Of a stretch of 45,149 bases of DNA, positions 2,689 through 28,580 are shown piece by piece; the stretch's first letter is position 1, and every line of letters starts with the position of its first letter. The stretch spans positions 1-45,149 of the IMG/VR virus record IMGVR_UViG_3300025160_000004; one strand, written 5' to 3'. The notes beneath the pieces were generated by a model. That model made no database searches, had not been told where the DNA came from, and worked only from the letters and a program-made list of their open reading frames with translations. Position numbers and translations under genes: made by a program. The stretch is from a virus (Duplodnaviria; Caudoviricetes).

Positions 2689-3948
2689 CTACACGCCGTG
2701 TCTGTCCAGTCCTGTGAAGTACGCGAAGTGCTTCCGCGCCCTGCATACCAATGCTGCGGGCATCGGCATGTTGAAAATCATGCGGGAGTAGTTTTCGCTC
2801 TCCATTCCATCGCCCCACGAGAACTTCCCATCAGGCTTGGGCAACAGAGTCCAGCGCTTGAGCGCGCCTTTCTGCCAACCAGTAAGAGCGCCTGGCTCGC
2901 AACGCTTGTTGCTGATGATCTTCCGTGTTCCCGACTTGATGCTGCCGTCCGTCTCCATGTTGACCGGAGAGTTGTGACGCATCTGTGAACGCTCGGAATC
3001 CATCCAGTCACGCCGTACCGCCTGATCCACGGTCATATGTGTGATCTTGCCGCCGAACTTCCCAACTTCGTCGGATGCGTACTGCAACCGGACGCCGTCG
3101 ATACGGCCACCTGTAGCGTCAGCAAAAGCAGGGGTCCACGCTGGCACAGAAGAACCAGACAACCCATGCACCGACGTTGCGCGCGTGATTGCGGCCAGTC
3201 CCTCGAACGACTTGTTATAGTCCGTGTCGGCCGCGGTCAGAACTTCGAGCGCGTTGGCCTTCACAATCTTAATCCCGTTCGTGGTTTCCGACGCTGATCC
3301 CTGCCACGTTACCGAAATGCTGGGCGTTGCGACTGTGATCGCGGTAATAACACCGACTGCATCCGTGATGAGCGTGTCGGTCAGGATAGCGGCCACGTAA
3401 TCGCCCACGCGGTACTTGTCGCACAGGTACGCGCCATCATCGATGGTGGAGATGCCGTAACCATCGTAGAGCGTGAGAACGTCGGTTCCGCCTGATAAAT
3501 CAGAATCCGTCAGGGCCAGTACGCCCGTGGAAGTGCCGTGAAAGCGGTCACCGAAGTCGTTGCCCAGAGCGGTCAACGCTGTCATGCCGTGGTGCTTCAA
3601 CTCGCGTCTGATCTGCGCTTCCGATTTGTCGGCCCACATGGTGAGCATCGGTGTCGCGAATGACTTGCGCAGCTCGTTCATGGTGATCGTCAATCGCTCG
3701 ACGTTCACTGAGCTGGGGCGCGGCTTCGCTCCACCTGGGGTTGTCGAGCTTACGCCGAATCCCTCGTGGACATTGAGCGGAATCTGCGTGCTGTACGCTG
3801 AGAGCGGCGTACCTTCGTCTTCTGTGAACTCTTCGATACTGTCAAACTCCTCGCACTCGGCGGGGAGTTGGTCTGCTACGTCGGCCTCGATCGTCCGCCA
3901 GATTTTGTTGCTCTGGGCGAAGGTCGTGGTCCATGAAGCGATTGCCAT
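2689..3948 (-). CDS. major capsid protein (HK97-fold, inferred)
   Basis: 419 aa; follows portal and scaffold; followed by a hairpin; capsid-like composition and C-terminus. Confidence 0.75.
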   Translation of the reverse strand: MAIASWTTTFAQSNKIWRTIEADVADQLPAECEEFDSIEEFTEDEGTPLSAYSTQIPLNVHEGFGVSSTTPGGAKPRPSSVNVERLTITMNELRKSFATPMLTMWADKSEAQIRRELKHHGMTALTALGNDFGDRFHGTSTGVLALTDSDLSGGTDVLTLYDGYGISTIDDGAYLCDKYRVGDYVAAILTDTLITDAVGVITAITVATPSISVTWQGSASETTNGIKIVKANALEVLTAADTDYNKSFEGLAAITRATSVHGLSGSSVPAWTPAFADATGGRIDGVRLQYASDEVGKFGGKITHMTVDQAVRRDWMDSERSQMRHNSPVNMETDGSIKSGTRKIISNKRCEPGALTGWQKGALKRWTLLPKPDGKFSWGDGMESENYSRMIFNMPMPAALVCRARKHFAYFTGLDRHGV

Positions 3949-3993: not shown

Positions 3994-5052
3994 TTATTCC
4001 CTCATCCACCTATCGCGCTCTTCTGGGGTGCGATGTGGACCTCGTTTCGTTTCAGTTACTACTGGCGTCCCCCTCGTGCCTGCGAGCGGGGCACCGTTTG
4101 CCGGAGGCTTGGCGTTCTGTCGTGCGTTGTGCTCGGCTACCTTCACTGCTGCGGCCCGCTCCTTCTTGTGAGTGTCACGGAGTGCAGCCCTGTCCTCCGC
4201 CAGCCCTGATAACACCCGGTCATCGTACAGCAATCCATGCTCTGGATGCTGAATGAACAACCGGCTGCCCAACTGGGTTGCTTGTGCCTCGAGCCATTTC
4301 CAATCTGCTGGTAACAGGTTGGCCGCCCACGGCTGCATCCTGAACTTCTCGACACTCTGAGAAATGCCATCAGCGACGTATTCCTGTTCCCGTTCCTGTT
4401 CCTCTTCTGGCGAAACCTCTGGTGGCCTGCTTGCGCGCTCCGCTTGTTCTTTCCAGTAATCGCGCTCAACTTGGGTGCGAAGGCCGGGCAGTTTTTGCAT
4501 GTAGGCCTGAAACTCTTCCCATGCTTGCTCGGGATTCGCAATAGCGTTGTCGATGGCTGTGTTGTATGCCGCCGCCAACTTTCTGTTGACCGCTGTCTCG
4601 GCTGCAACTTGTTCGCGAGCTTCCTTCAACTGACGCGGGAACTCTTGACGGGCACTCCCGTATTCGGTTGCCGCACTCAGTTGCTGCTGTACCCACGGCA
4701 CACGCTCCGGCTTCACCACTAGCGAGCCATCGGGCATCAGCGTAGCGCCCTCTACAGGGTGCTCGCGCGGACCGTGACGGAACGCAAACGGATTACCTAC
4801 AGGTGCAACGGGGGTTGGGGACGGTGGGGCCAGCGCTACGGGAACTTCTCCCGGCGTGGTCGTCGTCGGCTCTACGGTTTCAGTCTTTGCCGCAAACCGA
4901 CCGCTTTCGTCCCGTGGCCGCTCAGTAGTGGGAAGGGAGTCGGCACCTTCGTTACTGGCATCTGCCTCGGTTGACTGAGCTGTAAGGTCGCCCGTTGTAT
5001 CGGGGGCGGTGGCTTCCTCAGTTCCGACTTCTTCGGTCAATACTTCTGCCAT
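3994..5052 (-). CDS. capsid scaffolding protein
   Basis: Acidic disordered N-terminus with RDESGRFA motif, helical body, located between portal and capsid. Confidence 0.7.
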   Translation of the reverse strand: MAEVLTEEVGTEEATAPDTTGDLTAQSTEADASNEGADSLPTTERPRDESGRFAAKTETVEPTTTTPGEVPVALAPPSPTPVAPVGNPFAFRHGPREHPVEGATLMPDGSLVVKPERVPWVQQQLSAATEYGSARQEFPRQLKEAREQVAAETAVNRKLAAAYNTAIDNAIANPEQAWEEFQAYMQKLPGLRTQVERDYWKEQAERASRPPEVSPEEEQEREQEYVADGISQSVEKFRMQPWAANLLPADWKWLEAQATQLGSRLFIQHPEHGLLYDDRVLSGLAEDRAALRDTHKKERAAAVKVAEHNARQNAKPPANGAPLAGTRGTPVVTETKRGPHRTPEERDRWMRE

Positions 5053-16571: not shown

Positions 16572-17972
16572 TCATGCGGACGCTCGCATGTCGCCAGGTT
16601 TTGCATCGGCCATTGCAATGCGCTCACCAAGCCAGCGCATCACTGGCACGGCCATCGAATTACCGAGCGCCCTGTATTGCGCGCTGTCGGAAACGCCAGG
16701 GACTTGCGATAGATAATCGTCGGGGAATCCTTGCAATCGCGCGCATTCTTTCGGCGTCAGTCGTCGCACGGCCATGCCGGTCATTGTTGCACCGATGCGG
16801 TTGCTCCGTCCGCCACCCGCCATTGTCGCCGCACTATCACTAACACTTGCGTTGTACTCGTCAAATGCAACGGCGGGGATGTGATCTGTCGCGATGGTCG
16901 GTGATGGGTCGCCAGCCTCACCGATTCCAGTACCAGGCGCACCGCCGCTCGAACCTTCCGCGCGGTTGTTCGTCATCTTCTCGCCGCGGGATGCTTGCCG
17001 CATGTCGATGGTGATGATCTGTTGTGGCGGAACTACCGCGTTGACAGGCGGATGCAGATTGCCGTGATCGCCGCCGCCATGAATGCCACGCGCATCAAAT
17101 CGCCGCGGATCATCGTAGCAAGTGGTGAGCGGAACGCCGCGTCCAGTTCCGTCTTCGCTGGCGTCGTGACCTTCACCTTTCAGCGAATGAGCGATGAGTC
17201 CCGCATCATCGCGGAATCCTGAATGACCATCGCCATTCGATGTAATAGACGGCGCGATAACGACGTTATCGCGCCCGTTCTCTGGTTCGCTGTGCCACTT
17301 GGTACTGAGTGCGAATGCAACATCGGGAATCAGATTGTTGCCGTGTGCCTCCCGGTGTTCGCCGCCGCGGTCAATGCGTGTTGTAACTGGGAGGGCAATT
17401 CTCCCCCGCGCTTCTCTGCTCGGCGCAGGACTCCCCGACATGCTTTCGCGCTCAAATAGTACCGCCGCGGCACGTCGCCAGTCTCCAAGATGTCCGACAA
17501 CGAACACACGTCGGCGCCGCTGCGGAACTCCGAAGTACTGAGCGTCAAGCACTCTGTAGGCGAACCCATACCCGAGTTCTGCCAGTGCCCCGAGGAAGGA
17601 ACCAAAGTCCCGTCCTCCATCCGATGACAAAACTCCGGGGACGTTCTCCCATAGGACCCAGCGGGGGCGATATCGGTCAGCAATCGCAAGAAAGACAAGC
17701 GCCAGGTTGCCACGCGGGTCATCCAGTCCCTTTCTAAGTCCGGCGACTGAAAACGACTGGCACGGAGTTCCGCCGACGAGAACATCGACATCTGCATCTG
17801 GCCATTCCTTGAACTTTGCGATGTTGCCATAATTCGGAATCGTCGGGTAGTGATGAGCGAGAACGGCGCGCGGGAACTTTTCAATCTCGGCAAATGCAGC
17901 AGGCACCCAGCCCAGCGGATGCCAGGCAACAGTTGCGGCTTCGATACCCGAACACACAGACAGGTATCTCAT
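16572..17972 (-). CDS. DNA (cytosine-5)-methyltransferase, orphan
   Basis: Motifs I (CSGIEA), IV (GTPCQSFS), VI (ENV), VIII (QRRRRVF), IX (RRLTPKECARLQGF) and X (GNSM). Confidence 0.95.
   Translation of the reverse strand: MRYLSVCSGIEAATVAWHPLGWVPAAFAEIEKFPRAVLAHHYPTIPNYGNIAKFKEWPDADVDVLVGGTPCQSFSVAGLRKGLDDPRGNLALVFLAIADRYRPRWVLWENVPGVLSSDGGRDFGSFLGALAELGYGFAYRVLDAQYFGVPQRRRRVFVVGHLGDWRRAAAVLFERESMSGSPAPSREARGRIALPVTTRIDRGGEHREAHGNNLIPDVAFALSTKWHSEPENGRDNVVIAPSITSNGDGHSGFRDDAGLIAHSLKGEGHDASEDGTGRGVPLTTCYDDPRRFDARGIHGGGDHGNLHPPVNAVVPPQQIITIDMRQASRGEKMTNNRAEGSSGGAPGTGIGEAGDPSPTIATDHIPAVAFDEYNASVSDSAATMAGGGRSNRIGATMTGMAVRRLTPKECARLQGFPDDYLSQVPGVSDSAQYRALGNSMAVPVMRWLGERIAMADAKPGDMRASA
17330..17929 (-). 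CDS. nested +1-frame ORF, M.EcoHK31I beta-subunit-like; exact start uncertain
   Basis: 199-codon open frame containing SLSDILETGDVPRRYYLSAKACRGVLRRAEKRG. Confidence 0.5.
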   Translation of the reverse strand: MPGIRWAGCLLHLPRLKSSRAPFSLITTRRFRIMATSQSSRNGQMQMSMFSSAELRASRFQSPDLERDWMTRVATWRLSFLRLLTDIAPAGSYGRTSPEFCHRMEDGTLVPSSGHWQNSGMGSPTECLTLSTSEFRSGADVCSLSDILETGDVPRRYYLSAKACRGVLRRAEKRGGELPSQLQHALTAAANTGRHTATI

Positions 17973-20665: not shown

Positions 20666-20862
20666 TGCCGGATTAGCTCAGTGGTAGAGCAGCCGCTTCG
20701 TAAGCGGCAGGTCATCGGTTCGAGCCCGATATCCGGCTTCACTGCGTCGGGAAAGGCTGGGCACTCCTCACCCGGCAACGCGTCCTCCTGTCGTATAGAA
20801 CAGCCAACGCAGCGGAAGCCGAACGGGCCGCGTGAGCGGTGGGCGAAGAGGTGTCTGCTCAT
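20563..20862 (-). CDS. ORF reading antisense through tRNA-Thr
   Basis: ATGA-coupled start; His/Cys N-terminus, then tRNA-antisense-derived sequence. Confidence 0.35.
   Translation of the reverse strand: MSRHLFAHRSRGPFGFRCVGCSIRQEDALPGEECPAFPDAVKPDIGLEPMTCRLRSGCSTTELIRHNELPNTNQSTKHEPQSNAIKPDTAEACNSQSYY
20667..20738 (+). tRNA. tRNA-Thr(CGT), no encoded CCA; probable attP core
   Basis: GCCGGAT/ATCCGGC acceptor, GCTC D-stem, GCCGC-TTCGTAA-GCGGC anticodon arm, ATCGG-TTCGAGC-CCGAT T-arm. Confidence 0.92.
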
Positions 20863-21289: not shown

Positions 21290-22116
21290 CGCGGCGTCAC
21301 CGATTCCAAATGCGCGTCAAGAATCTTGCGCCCCTTTTCGAGCGACACATACATCCGTCGCCATTCCGCCAATGAGATGTCAGGCGGTTGTCCTCCAGCG
21401 GGACCATCGCACGCAAGCAACCGCTGGTCGCCCAGTCCGATGATCCCCATTGCGGTATTCACAGCGGAAGAAACGCAAGCGACATCCGTCACCAACATCC
21501 CTTCGTCTCCGTTGGCTGCTGCTTCGAGGTTCGCGATCTCGCTCAACAGTTCAGCCTTGGCGCGAGATGCCGCATCAAGCACGCGGCCATGTGGACGTCC
21601 TTGCGCTTGCAACCGCGCGGCTTTGCCAAGGTTTACATCGAAGCGCAAAACAATCTCGCGCATTCGCTCGCTCACTCTCAGAATGGGCGGGAGTCCATTG
21701 GGCGGAATGGTCATTGGTTGCCACCACGCCTCCTCTGGCGACATATCGTTGACGAGTTGCGCTTCGTATTCGCGGCGCTCATCTTCGTAGCAATCCCCGC
21801 AAAACCGAGCGGCCACCTGCATTGCCTGCATCAATTCGCTCTCATCATTGTCCGAATCCGTATCGCCCATAACCTCCTTATCGACAGCAGAGTGCAGCCG
21901 ACTGAGGGCGAACCGGATGTCGCGTAGGGCGACCCGGTTCGCCCTCTCGATTGCGGTCAACAGGGCAGCCCGCGCTATCAGCGTTTGTTCTCGCGCGTCA
22001 ATCGCCTCCTCCAGATCAACGGCGCCTTCTGCGAACGCAACGCGCGAGTGCTCCGTAATGGCACCTTCCAGCGCGTCAATTGCGCCCTCAATGTCGAGCC
22101 ACGATGCTTCTGTCAC
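21286..22116 (-). CDS. hypothetical modular protein
   Basis: 276 aa, coupled to the integrase stop. Confidence 0.65.
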   Translation of the reverse strand: MTEASWLDIEGAIDALEGAITEHSRVAFAEGAVDLEEAIDAREQTLIARAALLTAIERANRVALRDIRFALSRLHSAVDKEVMGDTDSDNDESELMQAMQVAARFCGDCYEDERREYEAQLVNDMSPEEAWWQPMTIPPNGLPPILRVSERMREIVLRFDVNLGKAARLQAQGRPHGRVLDAASRAKAELLSEIANLEAAANGDEGMLVTDVACVSSAVNTAMGIIGLGDQRLLACDGPAGGQPPDISLAEWRRMYVSLEKGRKILDAHLESVTPR

Positions 22117-23279
22117 TTCACCACCTCCTGCGCTGGCTTCTCCAGCATATCCGCCGTCTTCCGCAATTCAGCCTCGCGTTCCAGCAGGTAGTGATCACGG
22201 ACCACGGTAATGTCCTTATCCCCAATCCAATTCGCCGCCGTCTTCTCGCTGCCCGTCGCCGCGTGAATGTCCCCAGCAATCCCGCGCCGATGCCCGTGAG
22301 TTGATCGGTATTTGACGTGCGTGATCCCAGCGCGGTCCTCTGCAATGCGCATCGCCTGGTTGAGTCCCTGATATGTGTACGGGCGGTCTTTCGTCTTCTC
22401 CTGCGCCCCGAAAAACACGAACGGCCCCGCGTAGTCTTCAGCCAGCGCCCAGCCGTAACAGACCCAGAAAGCATCCACGACCGGCGCAGGCATTGGCTGC
22501 TTGCGTTCGTTCCCACGTTTGTCCAACTCCGCGCGAAACAGGATCGTTCCGGCATCGAGGTCGATATCCCGCCATTCCAGATGACGCGCAGCGTTCTGTC
22601 TGGGGCCACAGAAGGCGAACAGGGTAACCAGTGCCCACGCGCGCCATTCCTTCGCCTTGCGCGGGTCTAGCGCAGCCACGAGGGCATCCCGCTCGGCCCG
22701 CGAGTACTCAGACATCTGCTCCGCGCCCGCCAGCTGCTCCTTCGAGAACTCGGGGCGGTACGATGCCACCTTGGTAGGCGGTATCAAATCATCATCCACG
22801 GCCCAGCGGTAGACAGCGGTAACCAAGTTTAGGTGCGCAAGCACTTGGTTGGGCGCGTGCTTGAGTTTCAGCATCTCCACCTTGAACTCGTCCAGCTTGT
22901 CGCGCCTGACAGCGGAGGCCGAGGTGCGATCACCGATGAACTTCTCCCACTTGTTCCACCGTAGTTCGGCGGTCTGGCCGGTCTTATCGCGCCACGCGCT
23001 GTTCTTCCGGTTGCGGTATTTGCTCCACATCTCCCGCATCAATAACGGCTCGAATACTGGCCCGCCCCTGCTGTTCACCAGTTTGTCGTGTACGCCTTTG
23101 GCGAACGCCTTTGCCTCTGCTATCCCCTGACGGGTGTCAGGATAGGAGGCGGTGCGCACCTTCGGGTCATTCCACTGCACGCGGATCATGGACACGTCGC
23201 GGACTGGCTCCCTGAACACCTTCACGTAACCCGGTGCGCGTGGCCTGCCAACGGTGTCAATGATCTTGCGCTTCGTCAT
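22113..23279 (-). CDS. int: tyrosine integrase/recombinase
   Basis: CGPRQNAARHLEWRDIDL (R), DKRG (K), HGHRR (HxxR), IGD...HY (Y); ATGA-coupled start. Confidence 0.9.
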   Translation of the reverse strand: MTKRKIIDTVGRPRAPGYVKVFREPVRDVSMIRVQWNDPKVRTASYPDTRQGIAEAKAFAKGVHDKLVNSRGGPVFEPLLMREMWSKYRNRKNSAWRDKTGQTAELRWNKWEKFIGDRTSASAVRRDKLDEFKVEMLKLKHAPNQVLAHLNLVTAVYRWAVDDDLIPPTKVASYRPEFSKEQLAGAEQMSEYSRAERDALVAALDPRKAKEWRAWALVTLFAFCGPRQNAARHLEWRDIDLDAGTILFRAELDKRGNERKQPMPAPVVDAFWVCYGWALAEDYAGPFVFFGAQEKTKDRPYTYQGLNQAMRIAEDRAGITHVKYRSTHGHRRGIAGDIHAATGSEKTAANWIGDKDITVVRDHYLLEREAELRKTADMLEKPAQEVVK

Positions 23280-23614
23280 ACCGATTGCCTGCCAGCGTCG
23301 TAAGCGCTCGGCACATCTGCGCGCTGTGGAATTGCACAGGTGAGATATTCCCGTCGCCCCCTGATACCGTAGCGCGCCAGCCCGCACTCCATGAGAATGC
23401 GAAAACGGCGGCGCAAGGTGCGTTCAGAGTCGCCGGAGCGGAGCATCGCGTCACCCTCTGATATCCAGTTGGTGAACGGCTCGGCGGCCCATGCGATCGA
23501 GGCCAGCAGCTTCTCCAAAGCGGCAGCCTGGGATTCGTTGCCCATGCGCCGGAGCGTCTGCGCGTCACTGCGCGCGTCCGCGATAGCGGTAGCAAGGTCG
23601 TCAGTTGATCTCAC
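23276..23614 (-). CDS. putative excisionase / directionality factor
   Basis: Small wHTH-like protein (WISEGDAMLRSGDSERTLRRR) directly upstream of int. Confidence 0.5.
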   Translation of the reverse strand: MRSTDDLATAIADARSDAQTLRRMGNESQAAALEKLLASIAWAAEPFTNWISEGDAMLRSGDSERTLRRRFRILMECGLARYGIRGRREYLTCAIPQRADVPSAYDAGRQSV

Positions 23615-23736
23615 GCTTCCGCCTCTTTGCCCACGGCGACGGCGGCGCCGACCGGATGCATCTCGCCGCAGTACGGCCAGTCGGGGCAGCAGGCGTCTAT
23701 TGCCAAGTCCAGCGCGGTGTCGTCGTAATCGTTCAT
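23611..23736 (-). CDS. small hypothetical protein (41 aa)
   Basis: Coupled on both sides. Confidence 0.5.
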   Translation of the reverse strand: MNDYDDTALDLAIDACCPDWPYCGEMHPVGAAVAVGKEAEA

Positions 23737-24398
23737 CTCAGCGCCTTCAACAGGTACGGGTCCATATCCGGTTGCTTCACCAGCCATGACACGTAGTCGC
23801 TTGGTAGTTCCTTGACCGGCGCCCCTTTGTGCTTCCCGAACGCCATCACCTTCGGAATGCGCGCGTCCTCTGACAGTTCCCATAACTGCTCCCATGATTC
23901 AATACCTCCCAACTTTTTCGCCATCCGGTAAAGCAGGATCGCGGACATAAGAGCATCCGCCGCCGCGCCGTGCGCATTGCGCGCCAGTTCGCGCGCCCGC
24001 GTTGGCTGGAGCATGTACATCACCGCGAGTTGCTTGTGCGAGTCCAGCGTAGGCCACAGCGAGCGCGCCAGCGCCAGCGTACAAATGCGCTTGACGGGCG
24101 GCTCCCCAATAACCTTCCAGTCGTAATCGACGTTATGACCGACGATGTATTCCGTGCCCTCTGGCAAGTGGAAGCCAGCCGCGGGCGGACAGTCGGCAAC
24201 GTCGGCATCCTCGATCATGTGAGTTGCCATCGCGCCGTACTCAATTTTTCGGCCTGGGTTCCAGCGATGGGGTATGCACCCATCTTTAGAGATGATCGGC
24301 AGCCCGCCAACGATGCTGAGTTCAATCAGTGCGGATTCCACCAGCGCCACGGGCTCGGTGACGCCGGTCGTTTCGGAGTCAAAAACAAACACGCTCAC
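23733..24398 (-). CDS. DEDDh 3'-5' exonuclease (exonuclease X-like)
   Basis: FDSETTG, GHNVDYD, AHGAAAD and C-terminal FGKHKG...Y..WL. Confidence 0.9.
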   Translation of the reverse strand: MSVFVFDSETTGVTEPVALVESALIELSIVGGLPIISKDGCIPHRWNPGRKIEYGAMATHMIEDADVADCPPAAGFHLPEGTEYIVGHNVDYDWKVIGEPPVKRICTLALARSLWPTLDSHKQLAVMYMLQPTRARELARNAHGAAADALMSAILLYRMAKKLGGIESWEQLWELSEDARIPKVMAFGKHKGAPVKELPSDYVSWLVKQPDMDPYLLKALR

Positions 24399-25042
24399 GC
24401 GACGATCCTCATCGGCGGGAACTCGAAGTCCTCGAATAGCCCCATCGCCTGCAACTTCAACTTGCTTTCGTGCATGTATTCGGTGAACTGCGCAACGCAC
24501 TCCGCGAGCTTGGCGATGAACTCATCGTCGCGCTGGAAGCGGATCATCACCGGCGGCAGTTCGGGATTGTACGAGCAGAAGTCCCACCATTGGCGCTCTG
24601 TGATCCAGAGCCCGCCCTGTATCTGACATCGGTATTTCTCCTGCGCGTCACCCAGCAGGTAGCCGACGTGCGTATGTGCGGCTGGGCATTTGATTTCCAG
24701 CCCGCCATCGGTGCCAATCAGGCCATCGGGCGAGCATCCGGCACTCCGGTCATCGCGCAGCAGGAATCCGACTTGCTCAACGTCGTAGTCAGTCTGCAAC
24801 TCGTACCACTTCCGCGCCTCGTGCTCCATGATCGTGCCACGCTGCATAAAGTCCGATGTGGCGTCATCCAGTGGGCGCCCGATTAGCTGCTCCGCAAGTA
24901 GTTCGTGGCAATAGCCAGCAGCCGACGCGCTCATCTTGCCAGTCTTGGGCGTGATGATCTTGTGGAAGCTGCTGGCACCGGGGATGCCGATCTTCGCATC
25001 CAGCCACGCCTTTGTCCCTTGCTCAACGTCAACGCGGATCAT
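24395..25042 (-). CDS. YqaJ/lambda-exonuclease family protein
   Basis: QGT..W, RG...E..AR, CSPDG, EIKCP and QIQ motifs. Confidence 0.92.
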   Translation of the reverse strand: MIRVDVEQGTKAWLDAKIGIPGASSFHKIITPKTGKMSASAAGYCHELLAEQLIGRPLDDATSDFMQRGTIMEHEARKWYELQTDYDVEQVGFLLRDDRSAGCSPDGLIGTDGGLEIKCPAAHTHVGYLLGDAQEKYRCQIQGGLWITERQWWDFCSYNPELPPVMIRFQRDDEFIAKLAECVAQFTEYMHESKLKLQAMGLFEDFEFPPMRIVA

Positions 25043-25842
25043 TTGGCTTTCTCCTGCTTCCGCTTGAGCGTTTGTACCGCCTTGTCATATTCAGCCGCTG
25101 GCAGTTTGTCGAGGACTTCCACGCCCAGCCACGCGAGAAACTTCACGCGGTCAACCTTCGTGTCCCCGATCAAATCTTCGAGGCACGTCAGTTGGTCCTC
25201 AGTGATCGGAGTCGGGTCAACTACTTCGCCGTCCGTGTCGCCCTCTGGCGTGAGCCCCAGCGCGGCCATGAGCGTGCGGCGCTGCGCGAACGTCATCGCG
25301 GCGCCGTACTTCTGCTGATCGCTCATCGCCGCGTTCGTTGTTGTCGGCAGTGTAAAACTGGACGCGCGCGAGTGCCCGGCCTCGTGGATCACCGTACAGA
25401 TGACAGTGAGCATCCCGCCCGTTGCCGTGCTATCCCAGGTGTACGACAGTCCGTGCATGACGAGTACCGGCGCGATTGTCTTCGCTACTTCCTCAAGTGG
25501 CGCATAGGAATACGACATCCGCCCGCCCTTCTTGGTCGCAAAGTCTGCGTCCTTCGTCCTGTGGAGCGGCGGGCACTCCTGCTGGAACTTCGCCAGCGCG
25601 ATGTTGAACTCGCGCGCGGCGTCACGGTCTGCGATGCGCTCGTGCAATTCGACCAACTTCTCCAGCTCTGCGGCTGGCAGTCGTTCGCGGATTGCGATGT
25701 CGAACAGGTCCATGATTGACACCGGCGCCGTGCGTGGCGTCGTTAGCGCGCTTCGCGGTTCGTGAACGGATACGGCAGTGCTGCCATTCTCCACCAGCGC
25801 CGACTCCAATAGCGGGAGCCCTTCTTTCTGAATCTTGCTCAT
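25039..25842 (-). CDS. erf: ERF-family ssDNA annealing protein
   Basis: YSYAPLEEV and QKYGAAMTFAQRRTLMAALGL..EGDTDG. Confidence 0.9.
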   Translation of the reverse strand: MSKIQKEGLPLLESALVENGSTAVSVHEPRSALTTPRTAPVSIMDLFDIAIRERLPAAELEKLVELHERIADRDAAREFNIALAKFQQECPPLHRTKDADFATKKGGRMSYSYAPLEEVAKTIAPVLVMHGLSYTWDSTATGGMLTVICTVIHEAGHSRASSFTLPTTTNAAMSDQQKYGAAMTFAQRRTLMAALGLTPEGDTDGEVVDPTPITEDQLTCLEDLIGDTKVDRVKFLAWLGVEVLDKLPAAEYDKAVQTLKRKQEKAK

Positions 25843-26249
25843 CGCACAGCTCGTGCGTCTGCGCGAGCCAGAGCGCGGTTAAGGGCCGAGTTGGGCGAGA
25901 CGAGAACAGCTTCCGGCATGTCGGTAAGAATCCGCCGAACATCGCGCGCTATTGACTCGCCGCTCTGAGAGTCACGGAACTCCTGCAACTGCTTCCGCGC
26001 GTCCGCCTCTTCCTTGTCTGCCGCTGCCAGTGCTTCGCTGAAATCCTTGCCTTGGCCGATCCAGACAACTTCGTAACCCTCTTCGCCGTACCCGCCACGA
26101 CCGACGCGCCAGTCGTTGTCGTCGATCATTTCCCACACACCATCGCGCCCCCAGCGTGCTTCTACTGCATCATCCCGCCATGCTTTGCAGGATGTGCAAT
26201 CGCAATCGCTGAGAGCGGCATCGCTGCCATCGTGTACCCGCATTGTCAT
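25839..26249 (-). CDS. hypothetical protein
   Basis: GGAG RBS; coupled to erf. Confidence 0.6.
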   Translation of the reverse strand: MTMRVHDGSDAALSDCDCTSCKAWRDDAVEARWGRDGVWEMIDDNDWRVGRGGYGEEGYEVVWIGQGKDFSEALAAADKEEADARKQLQEFRDSQSGESIARDVRRILTDMPEAVLVSPNSALNRALARADARAVR

Positions 26250-26701
26250 ACTCCAACCGCCCCCGTTACACTTAAGGCGCAGGCGCTAGGGCTAAGAGGC
26301 GTCTGGCTTTCGCAAAGCGCCGGGGCTGATATCCTCGGCGTTTTGTTTACCACATCGGCTGATCCGGGCCGGACTTGAACCGGCATTTGTTTCTGGCTTA
26401 TCGCTTCCTCAGCGTTTTGGTGCACCTCTGCGCTGATTCCCCTACCGGACCATAGAAAAGCAGGGGCCGGAGTCGCACCGGCTACCTCCGGGTTATGAGC
26501 CCGGCGCGCTACTGTTGCGCCACCCTGCGATAGTTTTTCGCTCCCGCTACCAGTCGCTCTCGCGACAACAACACATTCCGGTCCTGCCTTCACTTCCGCC
26601 GCGTACTCCGACAACAAGAGTTGCGGGCGCTCCATGCAATGCTGACGGAATACTTGTGACCACCATACTGCGCACTTCTGCATCGGGACGGGCGCGGTCA
26701 T
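26246..26701 (-). CDS. 151-codon bridging ORF reading in sense through the tRNA/ncRNA cluster
   Basis: ATGA overlap with both the upstream stop and the downstream start. Confidence 0.4.
   Translation of the reverse strand: MTAPVPMQKCAVWWSQVFRQHCMERPQLLLSEYAAEVKAGPECVVVARATGSGSEKLSQGGATVARRAHNPEVAGATPAPAFLWSGRGISAEVHQNAEEAISQKQMPVQVRPGSADVVNKTPRISAPALCESQTPLSPSACALSVTGAVGV
26360..26451 (-). ncRNA. tRNA-like RNA (acceptor stem and T-arm, non-canonical interior)
   Basis: GGTCCGG/CCGGATC-A; GCCGG-TTCAAGT-CCGGC; internal TCAGCG/CGCTGA stem. Confidence 0.6.
26458..26529 (-). tRNA. tRNA-Met(CAT), initiator-like and atypical
   Basis: CGCAGGG/CCCTGCT with a C1 mismatch; CCGGG-CTCATAA-CCCGG (three G-C pairs); T-loop TGCGACT. 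Confidence 0.85.
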
Positions 26702-26943
26702 TGTCCGCCACTCTCTGCAAAGCTGCGCGCAAGGCCGATGGCCTTCTCTTCCATGCGGTCCAGCGCCGCTAGAGCGAAGATGTCGCACCCGCACACCTCG
26801 CACGGGCCGCTACGCTCGGCGTTCCCACTGTGCCGCCCGATAACCTCAGCGCGATAGGGGACGGACATTTCAGCGAGACAACGCGGGCAAGCGGTGTGCA
26901 CGGTGGTGGTGAGTGTGGCGGTCATTGCATGTAGAGTGGTCAC
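26698..26943 (-). CDS. Zn-ribbon hypothetical protein
   Basis: CPRC...CEVC; GTGA-coupled. Confidence 0.6.
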   Translation of the reverse strand: MTTLHAMTATLTTTVHTACPRCLAEMSVPYRAEVIGRHSGNAERSGPCEVCGCDIFALAALDRMEEKAIGLARSFAESGGQ

Positions 26944-27134
26944 GATGCCGCCTTCGCGTTCTTCGCTTCGATCTCGGCGTTGCGCTTCTCGGTGCGCTTG
27001 TCCTGCACCCAATCGGCCAGCTCGTCGTAGTCGATGCCGTGGCTTTCATTCATGACGGCGAAGAACGCACCGTCCGGTAAATCGTCGTGCATGTCAACGT
27101 GATCGCGGATGTATTCCCAGCGGGATTGTTTCAT
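26940..27134 (-). CDS. hypothetical protein (64 aa)
   Basis: Coupled on both sides. Confidence 0.65.
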   Translation of the reverse strand: MKQSRWEYIRDHVDMHDDLPDGAFFAVMNESHGIDYDELADWVQDKRTEKRNAEIEAKNAKAAS

Positions 27135-27340
27135 GCTTCTCTCCGATCAATGCGCAGCACTGCGGGCGCGTCCAATTCTGCCAGTGAGCGCTGCGCTTCG
27201 TCCTCAGCTTCGAGCACGCGCGTCAGTCTGTTTATCTCAACTGCGTCAACGCGGTTAGCGCGGTCGCGTGCAACGATTGAAGCCCGGCGCTGCTGTATTG
27301 CGGACAGCATGGAAGCGCGGGAGGTGATGATGGGTGTCAT
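27131..27340 (-). CDS. hypothetical protein (69 aa)
   Basis: Coupled on both sides. Confidence 0.6.
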   Translation of the reverse strand: MTPIITSRASMLSAIQQRRASIVARDRANRVDAVEINRLTRVLEAEDEAQRSLAELDAPAVLRIDRREA

Positions 27341-27519
27341 CGCATCACCTGCACGACGATGACGAGAATCGCGGCCACAACGGCGAGCCAGAACACGGTG
27401 ACGGCCACTCCGGCGATTATGTCAGTACTGTGGTGGCGTTGCCGCGACGGGTGGCGAGTTTGCGCAACCCTTGATTTCACCGTAGCGGCTGGCGAGCGTG
27501 AAAGGATGTTCCGTCTCAT
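27337..27519 (-). CDS. small membrane protein
   Basis: C-terminal hydrophobic helix. Confidence 0.6.
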   Translation of the reverse strand: MRRNILSRSPAATVKSRVAQTRHPSRQRHHSTDIIAGVAVTVFWLAVVAAILVIVVQVMR

Positions 27520-27752
27520 GCTACCGCCTGCGCTTCAGTCTCGACGCGGGGAGGAAATACGACCTCTCCCGGCCTTCCAATGCGCGCTGTGATGATTTGC
27601 TCAATGCGCTCGTGGCGCTGGCGGCCATTCACCACGCGCGAAACGAGAGAGGCATCGACTTCAGCTATGGCGGCAATCTCTTTTGTGCCGCCATGCCCTA
27701 GCCGCTCCTTCCTCTCCCAGCGCGTCAGTGATACCTTAATCTTTCTAGTCAT
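27516..27752 (-). CDS. Cro-like HTH regulator
   Basis: TKEIAAIAEVDASLVSRVVNG HTH; GAGG RBS; first gene of the early operon. Confidence 0.75.
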   Translation of the reverse strand: MTRKIKVSLTRWERKERLGHGGTKEIAAIAEVDASLVSRVVNGRQRHERIEQIITARIGRPGEVVFPPRVETEAQAVA

Positions 27753-27843
27753 TTGTTGACCTCGTTTTCGACTGTGACAGTAAGCTAATTACTGTGACCG
27801 CATCTTGTCAATAGCTGACCGTCAACACTTACCGGGGCGGTAA
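27753..27843. promoter_or_regulatory. immunity switch region: leftward promoter and operators
   Basis: Minus-strand TTGACA(27806-11)-18 nt-TAGCTT; ACTGTGAC at 27771 and 27791; palindromes ACTGT-G-ACAGT and TGAC-C-GTCA. Confidence 0.7.
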
Positions 27844-28179
27844 ATGGCAGGCAGGGAAGAGTTCATGAGGTTGCTTGGGAAACGCCTCTTTGCGGCGCGT
27901 CACGCGCTGGAGGGGAGGCTAGAGAGGCCGGTGCAGCTTCAGGAAATCGCGGCCGACATCAGAAAACGGATGGGGAGCAAAAAGGCCCCAGCGGATTCTG
28001 TCGTGTCTCGCTGGCTTGCGGGCAAACAACTCCCGCGTGACATCTATGTATGGTACGCCATCAGTGGCGCACTGGGTGCGAGGCCGGGCGAATTGGTGTT
28101 CGGAGAGATGGGAGACGCAGGGAAAGGGGCTGTTGCCCGGAACCGCTTGGTCAATTACACAAACAAGGGGGAGCGATGA
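27844..28179 (+). CDS. CI-like Xre repressor without a peptidase domain
   Basis: Divergent from cro; QEIAA...DSVVSRWLAGKQLP...LGARPGELVFG. Confidence 0.75.
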   Translation: MAGREEFMRLLGKRLFAARHALEGRLERPVQLQEIAADIRKRMGSKKAPADSVVSRWLAGKQLPRDIYVWYAISGALGARPGELVFGEMGDAGKGAVARNRLVNYTNKGER

Positions 28180-28580
28180 GACGGACGTTGATTGCGGGGC
28201 TCGTAGTGGCTGCGATGGCGTGCGGCGACAAGGCACCTACCGAGCCGGAGCCCATACCAAATCCCACAATAGTGATTTCCGGAAACTCGGCCTGGGTCGC
28301 GTGCCTGCCATTCTCCGGGGACTGCAAGTTGGCTTTGTCAGTCACTAACGCAGGCCCGGGGTGTTCTTCCAGCACCAACGTTATTGCACGACTCTACAAC
28401 GCCAGTGGTGTGCAGGTAGGGCCGGACATTATCATGCTGCGCTTTGGCGTTGGTCCGATAGGTGGAATTCGCGTAGACCAGATCGTACCACTAGAGGCAG
28501 TTGATTATACGACCGCCGCCAGCATACAGGCTGCATCAACTTTCCAGATATTCCCATCATGGAACGCTGCGCTCTGCTAG
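28176..28580 (+). CDS. lipoprotein, superinfection-exclusion candidate
   Basis: MRRTLIAGLVVAAMA-C lipobox; ATGA-coupled to the repressor. Confidence 0.7.
   Translation: MRRTLIAGLVVAAMACGDKAPTEPEPIPNPTIVISGNSAWVACLPFSGDCKLALSVTNAGPGCSSSTNVIARLYNASGVQVGPDIIMLRFGVGPIGGIRVDQIVPLEAVDYTTAASIQAASTFQIFPSWNAALC

Follow-up and report, generated by a model that had tools for sequence, protein, structure and literature searches.

The window analysed here is the whole of a phage record of 45 kb (45,149 nucleotides) that carries genes for an integrase, an ERF protein, a YqaJ exonuclease and a DEDD exonuclease, as recognised with Pfam and PHROG. RTGA overlaps, in which a stop codon and the next start codon overlap within four bases, underlie translational coupling in phage operons. 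On the minus strand of the window, from 27752 to 21286, such overlaps join a chain of genes that spans a cro-like gene to beyond the integrase, and they are present at 13 of 13 junctions when the frame studied here is counted as one link (the tally is made up of 9 of 9 junctions plus four more, with the exonuclease junction, ATG 23736, taken from the printed sequence). This frame, which we call the bridge frame, lies between an 81-aa ORF and a gene whose family was not recognised, and it crosses a cassette of tRNA-like sequences. The features, all on the minus strand, are as follows.

27516..27752, minus: small HTH (cro-like) gene at the head of the coupled chain (phrog_769, E 4e-4)
26698..26943, minus: 81-aa ORF upstream, with two CxxC motifs and a stop that overlaps the ATG of the bridge frame (ORF list)
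26246..26701, minus: bridge frame, 151 codons, stop-free, ATGA-coupled at both ends (ORF analysis)
26553..26566, minus: 5-bp hairpin GTCGC-GAGA-GCGAC with a GNRA loop; present, not significant
26458..26529, minus: initiator-type tRNA-Met(CAU) variant, no encoded CCA (ARAGORN; Rfam RF00005, 56.4 bits)
26360..26451, minus: tRNA-shaped element with a 7-bp acceptor stem, A73 and a canonical T arm (folding)
26250..26359, minus: 3' spacer with weak alternative stems (z +0.5; 138/200 shuffles as stable)
25839..26249, minus: downstream 136-aa gene (134 aa from ATG 26243), family not recognised, coding-like (+0.18 bits per codon)
25039..25842, minus: ERF-family ssDNA annealing protein (PF04404, phrog_155)
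24395..25042, minus: YqaJ / lambda-type exonuclease (PF09588)
23733..24398, minus: DEDD-type exonuclease (phrog_192; PF00929 under its cut-off)
22113..23279, minus: tyrosine integrase, inside the RTGA-coupled chain (PF00589)

The 81-aa ORF has a weak match to a Zn-ribbon that falls under the cut-off. A scan for minus-strand sigma-70 sites returned none in 25700-28300, and the same scan also returned none at the operon head. Behind the DEDD exonuclease lies a 41-codon ORF (23611-23736, minus strand) with a CCPxWPxC motif, which is joined to the exonuclease by ATGA and to the following gene by GTGA. Farther along, a 199-codon ORF (17330-17929, minus strand) that resembles a real phage protein is nested, in another frame, in a gene (16572-17972, minus strand) with the appearance of a DNA cytosine methyltransferase. 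A complete tRNA-Thr(CGT) (20667-20738, plus strand), a candidate attP, lies antisense to the operon, about 1.4 kb beyond the integrase. An attB-like match to this tRNA-Thr was not found among 301 Gemmatimonadota genomes, where the best matches, in two of them, reached only 83-85%. Despite a best genomic YqaJ match in a Gemmatimonadota MAG (55% identity), these low tRNA-Thr matches mean that a Gemmatimonadota host is not established.

An open frame across the RNA cassette

The bridge frame comprises 456 nt from ATG to TGA, with 151 codons and no internal stop, whereas the other two sense frames of the same region contain 8 and 6 stops. Its ATG at 26701 overlaps the stop of the 81-aa ORF as ATGA, and its TGA at 26246-26248 overlaps the downstream ATG at 26249, also as ATGA. 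These overlaps are as described in an earlier note on this DNA, which had proposed a doubly coupled, stop-free frame running in sense through a tRNA-Met, a tRNA-like element and a GAGA hairpin, and all three of those elements proved to lie where the note had placed them. Each of the two RNAs crossed, the tRNA-Met variant and the tRNA-shaped element, has one stop-free frame only, and in both it is the coupled one. The frame also remains open for 36 codons further 5' of ATG 26701.

To estimate how often such a frame would arise by chance, we used three shuffling models. With both ATGA overlaps given, 28 of 20,000 shuffles of the whole region were open. When both RNAs were kept intact and placed at random phase, 6 of 20,000 arrangements were open and ended in the overlap, and the count was 41/20,000 when the first 45 codons were kept as well; all of these figures are per locus and uncorrected for the many windows scanned. 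An open coupled frame is therefore improbable by chance at a single locus, yet it is reachable by a scan over very many windows. Inspection by eye revealed no stop-avoiding substitutions in the tRNA loops.

The downstream gene has a Shine-Dalgarno sequence of its own (GGAG, 26254-26251), the spacing of which is better for a second ATG at 26243, where the representative of the gene's protein cluster (P0008) starts. Occlusion of the downstream start by structure is mid-range (12.6-14.5 kcal/mol versus 8.8-20.1 kcal/mol at coupled starts), and some folds of the 3' spacer (26250-26359) pair the GGAG.

The RNAs of the cassette and the peptide

Bacterial initiator tRNA-fMet is specified by a CAU anticodon, three G-C pairs in the anticodon stem, an unpaired 1-72 position, A11-U24, A73, G18G19 and U55. 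The phage tRNA-Met (26458-26529) resembles it in having CAU, a 1-72 mismatch (C1.U72) and the three G-C anticodon-stem pairs, but differs from it in the remaining determinants, with A18, G55, C11-G24 and U73 in their place. These departures are unusual: U55 was present in 103 of 103 unselected viral initiator tRNAs that could be parsed and a D-loop GG in 102 of the 103, and U55, GG, U24 and A73 were found in 10/10 parsed copies from Gemmatimonadota (the phylum of the best YqaJ match, not an identified host). In three viral loci (L058, L064 and L080), the D-loop GG is lost (A18) together with the change to G55, as in the window, and in a fourth (L015) it is lost alone. The pairing of A18 with G55 hints at a compensated elbow, a possible covariation, and not at decay.

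The tRNA-shaped element (26360-26451) is more stable than most shuffles of its sequence (z -2.0; 3 of 200 shuffles equally stable). Neither an ARAGORN call nor an Rfam family explains it. Like tRNA-Leu, it has an acceptor stem, A73 and a T arm; unlike tRNA-Leu, it lacks a D stem, an anticodon arm and a paired long variable arm, both in the minimum free energy structure and in the 12 near-optimal folds listed. In a comparison with 646 tRNAs, its acceptor and T arm scored best against tRNA-Leu (five of the top six), although the best-scoring tRNA-Leu had itself been fetched with the T arm of the element. We read the element as a putative tRNA-Leu-like mimic. The tRNA-like domain of tmRNA was rejected as an identity for the element, which has U3-A70 in place of G3.U70, and neither ARAGORN nor Rfam calls a tmRNA. 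GOLLD, ROOL and other Rfam RNAs were likewise rejected, as only the tRNA reaches its gathering score in the covariance-model search.

The additional hairpins that the earlier note had listed fared less well: the GAGA hairpin is present, but neither its region (z -1.2; 26 of 200 shuffles equally stable) nor the 3' stems exceed shuffled sequence in stability.

The peptide encoded by the bridge frame differs from the product of an ordinary protein-coding gene in having no homologues, codon bias or foldable structure. It matched no Pfam or PHROG family, and a protein search with it gave two matches among 112 candidates, one a near-identical copy and the other an ORF that is a shadow of a tRNA; in tblastn, all 80 of the 80 matches kept lie on the tRNA part of the frame. 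With the first 57 aa as the query, 1.84 billion representative sequences yielded only the same near-identical copy and two repeat proteins (P0196 and P0197), which we rejected as repeat-protein artefacts, and there was no homologue of these residues in named phages or in the Atlas. The Atlas model of the peptide has a pLDDT of 0.32. The codon score of the frame is -0.09 (+0.04 in its 5' part, -0.29 in its 3' part), compared with +0.18 +/- 0.14 for 126 in-sample gene windows, and some small coupled neighbours also score near zero, down to -0.02. Gene callers differ on the length of the ORF (59, 151 or 180 aa). The peptide is likely a by-product.

Recurrence of the design at other loci

We surveyed initiator-tRNA loci for frames coupled at both ends. 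Among 61 distinct viral loci that had not been selected for similarity (from 120 fetched, with 500-nt flanks required and duplicates removed), none was doubly coupled, and downstream coupling was seen in 5, compared with 8 expected from phase permutation. None of 15 loci from Gemmatimonadota was doubly coupled, and 2 of 51 loci selected by tblastn were. Pooled, the doubly coupled loci number 2/125 versus 0.44 expected, and upstream coupling was seen 3 times versus 3.0 expected. In a partly selected set, 20 of 156 tRNAs are enclosed by open frames that are 150 codons or longer, and several of the surveyed tRNAs have promoter-like sequence just upstream. Counter-examples were also found: a tRNA of L021 is flanked by sense genes but not spanned by a bridge, and a coupled ORF of L407 (601-978, plus strand) terminates inside an initiator tRNA, at a TAA in its anticodon loop. 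The doubly coupled frame of L002 is weak (764/8,000 in its null), and that of L044 was rejected because its flanking ORFs sit in a tRNA cluster and look spurious. L044 also contains, in a phage tRNA cluster at 2800-3450 (plus strand), repeated units in which tRNA halves are circularly rearranged and enclosed in longer stems. The bridge frame is therefore no general rule for phage tRNAs.

Diverged relatives of the window cassette were sought in viral contigs, named phages, metagenome loci, Gemmatimonadota genomes and sequencing reads, and none was found. The reads of 4 of the 11 listed sequencing runs contain the same clone, with no substitutions among those listed. A search of viral contigs with the T-arm pattern returned one match, an ordinary tRNA-Leu; a loose stem pattern returned 120 loci, none with a like element; the 20 matches listed of 173 blastn records against named phages cover the tRNA-Met only; and 3 of 201 Gemmatimonadota genomes matched, over the length of the T arm only. 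Single queries with ERF and YqaJ returned nothing from viral contigs, and YqaJ returned nothing from genome contigs. The ERF query returned six metagenome loci, one of which is the window's own DNA. A search with a YqaJ alignment returned 160 loci, with identities of up to 58%, and a comparable cassette was recognised in one of them, L103 (5045-5120 and 5329-5421, plus strand), where a very degenerate initiator-like tRNA is accompanied by hairpins and by a tRNA-like element whose middle arm is long. That cassette lies directly behind promoter-like sequence, in the leader ahead of ERF and YqaJ, and is not spanned by an ORF, an arrangement that fits with bridging being needed only in mid-operon. 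Because no diverged relative of the window cassette was found, the case for selection at the window locus is built on a single null model.

The L011 lineage does have diverged relatives, and for this reason it is a better test case than the window. In L011 (3896-4765, plus strand), a frame of 289 codons starts in a GTGA overlap, crosses one tRNA-Met and two tRNA-Arg, and is joined by an ATGA overlap to an HD phosphatase gene; its null gave 28/8,000, and the G+C content of L011 is 70%. A hairpin at about 4285-4305 may resemble lambda boxB. A search with this frame scored 8,000 candidates and returned 58 proteins. Its relatives are called proteins of 158-506 aa, so the comparison is at the protein level and biased to open frames, since broken copies cannot appear in it. 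Three of them (P0136, P0137 and P0139) share the non-tRNA modules of L011 but differ in tRNA content, and all of them, despite gains or losses of modules, stay open as far as an identical C-terminal junction. P0137 reads LSFFPFSR, eight residues that belong to another frame of L011, and then RRPA where the main frame has RRSA. This is apparently a compensated frameshift, with the return to frame judged from four residues. P0194, which was found through its cluster and not through the length filter, joins in frame across the whole middle of the L011 frame. P0138 shares the tRNA-Arg pair only, and the lower matches are short, like tRNA shadows. At the DNA level, the matches listed were only tRNA shadows in viral contigs and sat on the tRNA parts in 301 Gemmatimonadota genomes, and relatives were not found in named phages. 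Judged from these protein sequences, the pattern in the lineage is apparently what selection on openness and end phase, and not on the peptide, would predict.

A proposed role for the frame and its alternatives

The CI RNA of phage P4 is matured by RNase P. The P4 eta ORF, which is reported to be coupled to its upstream neighbour, has the processed CI RNA within it, and its translation prevents termination (PMC10111431). The bridge frame is similarly coupled to an upstream gene and spans structured RNA. It differs in what it contains and encodes: eta, which has an internal promoter, is a protein of the Bro network with homologues, and the CI RNA acts as antisense, while the bridge frame contains a tRNA and a mimic and encodes a peptide without a family. 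A search of the cassette for C4/CI-type Rfam matches found none. With neither a Bro-type product nor a C4/CI RNA, the bridge frame is not a member of the P4 eta/CI system. The immI operon of P1 and P7 (c4-icd-ant), as far as the accessible text describes it, also combines a small RNA with short ORFs in one temperate-phage operon, but there C4 is an antisense regulator, icd is a gene in its own right with a function, and an ORF through a tRNA is not described (PMC8198154). The bridge frame resembles other RTGA-coupled units at both of its ends, in line with all of the junctions in its chain, but it appears to encode RNA modules and not a conserved protein. A literature search, with most subscription journals outside its scope, found no description of phage tRNAs over which an ORF in sense is kept open.

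We consider it reasonably probable that the bridge frame is under selection to carry coupled ribosomes across the RNA cassette, working as eta does over the CI RNA. Ribosomes that end the 81-aa gene would re-initiate at 26701, translate the cassette and finish on the start of the next gene, and the coupled chain to ERF, YqaJ and the integrase would thereby be kept intact. Selection would keep the frame translatable, and the frame would be translated. A stop within it would be polar, through the loss of re-initiation and possibly also through premature termination of the kind described for P4 eta. In a share of the transcripts, the RNAs would be released by RNase P and 3' nucleases, either between ribosomes or after translation, and a cut at the 5' end of the tRNA would leave an upstream mRNA without a stop, which established biology suggests would be rescued by tmRNA. 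Cargo RNAs would be tolerated here only in the phase that keeps the frame open. Re-initiation seems a likelier benefit than protection from Rho, given that the cassette, unlike typical Rho sites, is rich in G. The need for coupling is weakened by the decent and only moderately occluded Shine-Dalgarno sequence of the downstream gene.

Alternatively, the cassette may be non-coding, with the downstream gene started from its own Shine-Dalgarno sequence at ATG 26243 and the open frame a mere shadow of G+C-rich tRNA sequence. Shadows of tRNA-Met are indeed common, as both the tblastn matches and the tRNAs within long open frames indicate; the unselected loci show no enrichment; and a per-locus probability of 3e-4 to 2e-3 can be reached over many thousands of windows. 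Chance would, however, also have to account for an RTGA chain that is unbroken across all 13 junctions and for a second rare case, L011, among only 125 loci, the relatives of which have exchanged modules in frame and apparently compensated a frameshift, and we regard it as unlikely. A further alternative is that a real small gene of about 45-55 codons received the RNA cassette in its end and makes a functional protein with a junk tail. Windows of 30 codons over the first ~60 codons do score +0.04 to +0.16, when coupled neighbours score as low as -0.02, but the first 57 aa have neither a homologue nor a family, and an open frame would still be required, such that this explanation overlaps with a bridging function; we think it improbable.

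The earlier note had proposed that translation and excision of the RNAs by RNase P/Z would be mutually exclusive, which could couple the flow of ribosomes to cleavage of the early mRNA or to release of the RNAs on stalling. In such a switch, translating ribosomes would shield the RNAs, and a stall or block would free the tRNA and the mimic and sever the early mRNA in front of the genes for recombination and integration. The geometry permits this. Acceptor and T arms are the features by which RNase P recognises its substrates, and they are intact in both RNAs. The A18/G55 double change, shared with L058, L064 and L080, suggests that the elbow is kept. The fate of the P4 eta/CI transcript is likewise described as dependent on translation (PMC10111431). 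However, any exclusion would probably be only momentary, as it would last while a ribosome is on a module of 72-92 nt that could refold between ribosomes. Neither a stalling codon run nor a competing significant helix was found in the bridge frame, and the tRNA content of the L011 lineage changes freely, which argues for tolerance rather than a tuned sensor. We therefore hold a dedicated switch to be very unlikely. The note's interpretation thus survives in part: the improbable frame, the same design with apparent selection in the L011 lineage and the precedent of P4 eta all speak for it, whereas the hairpins that it had included are not significant. A more elaborate possibility, which we judge quite unlikely, is that the cassette has a dual use. 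It would be a throw-away ORF during healthy translation and, when translation fails, would be excised as an altered initiator tRNA and a tRNA-Leu mimic that serve as rescue or decoy RNAs, with the recombination and integration genes disconnected, and so would act as a sensor of the translation state of the host.

If the bridging function that we favour is real, tRNA genes can sit in translated sequence of the same strand, with the constraint falling on the frame and the end phase and not on the amino acids. It would then account for a class of "hypothetical proteins" without a family that overlie phage tRNAs and are removed or retained by annotators arbitrarily, and it would define by rule which positions in a coupled operon can accept cargo RNAs. 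The race between ribosome and RNase P on one transcript that it implies would be testable with a simple reporter.
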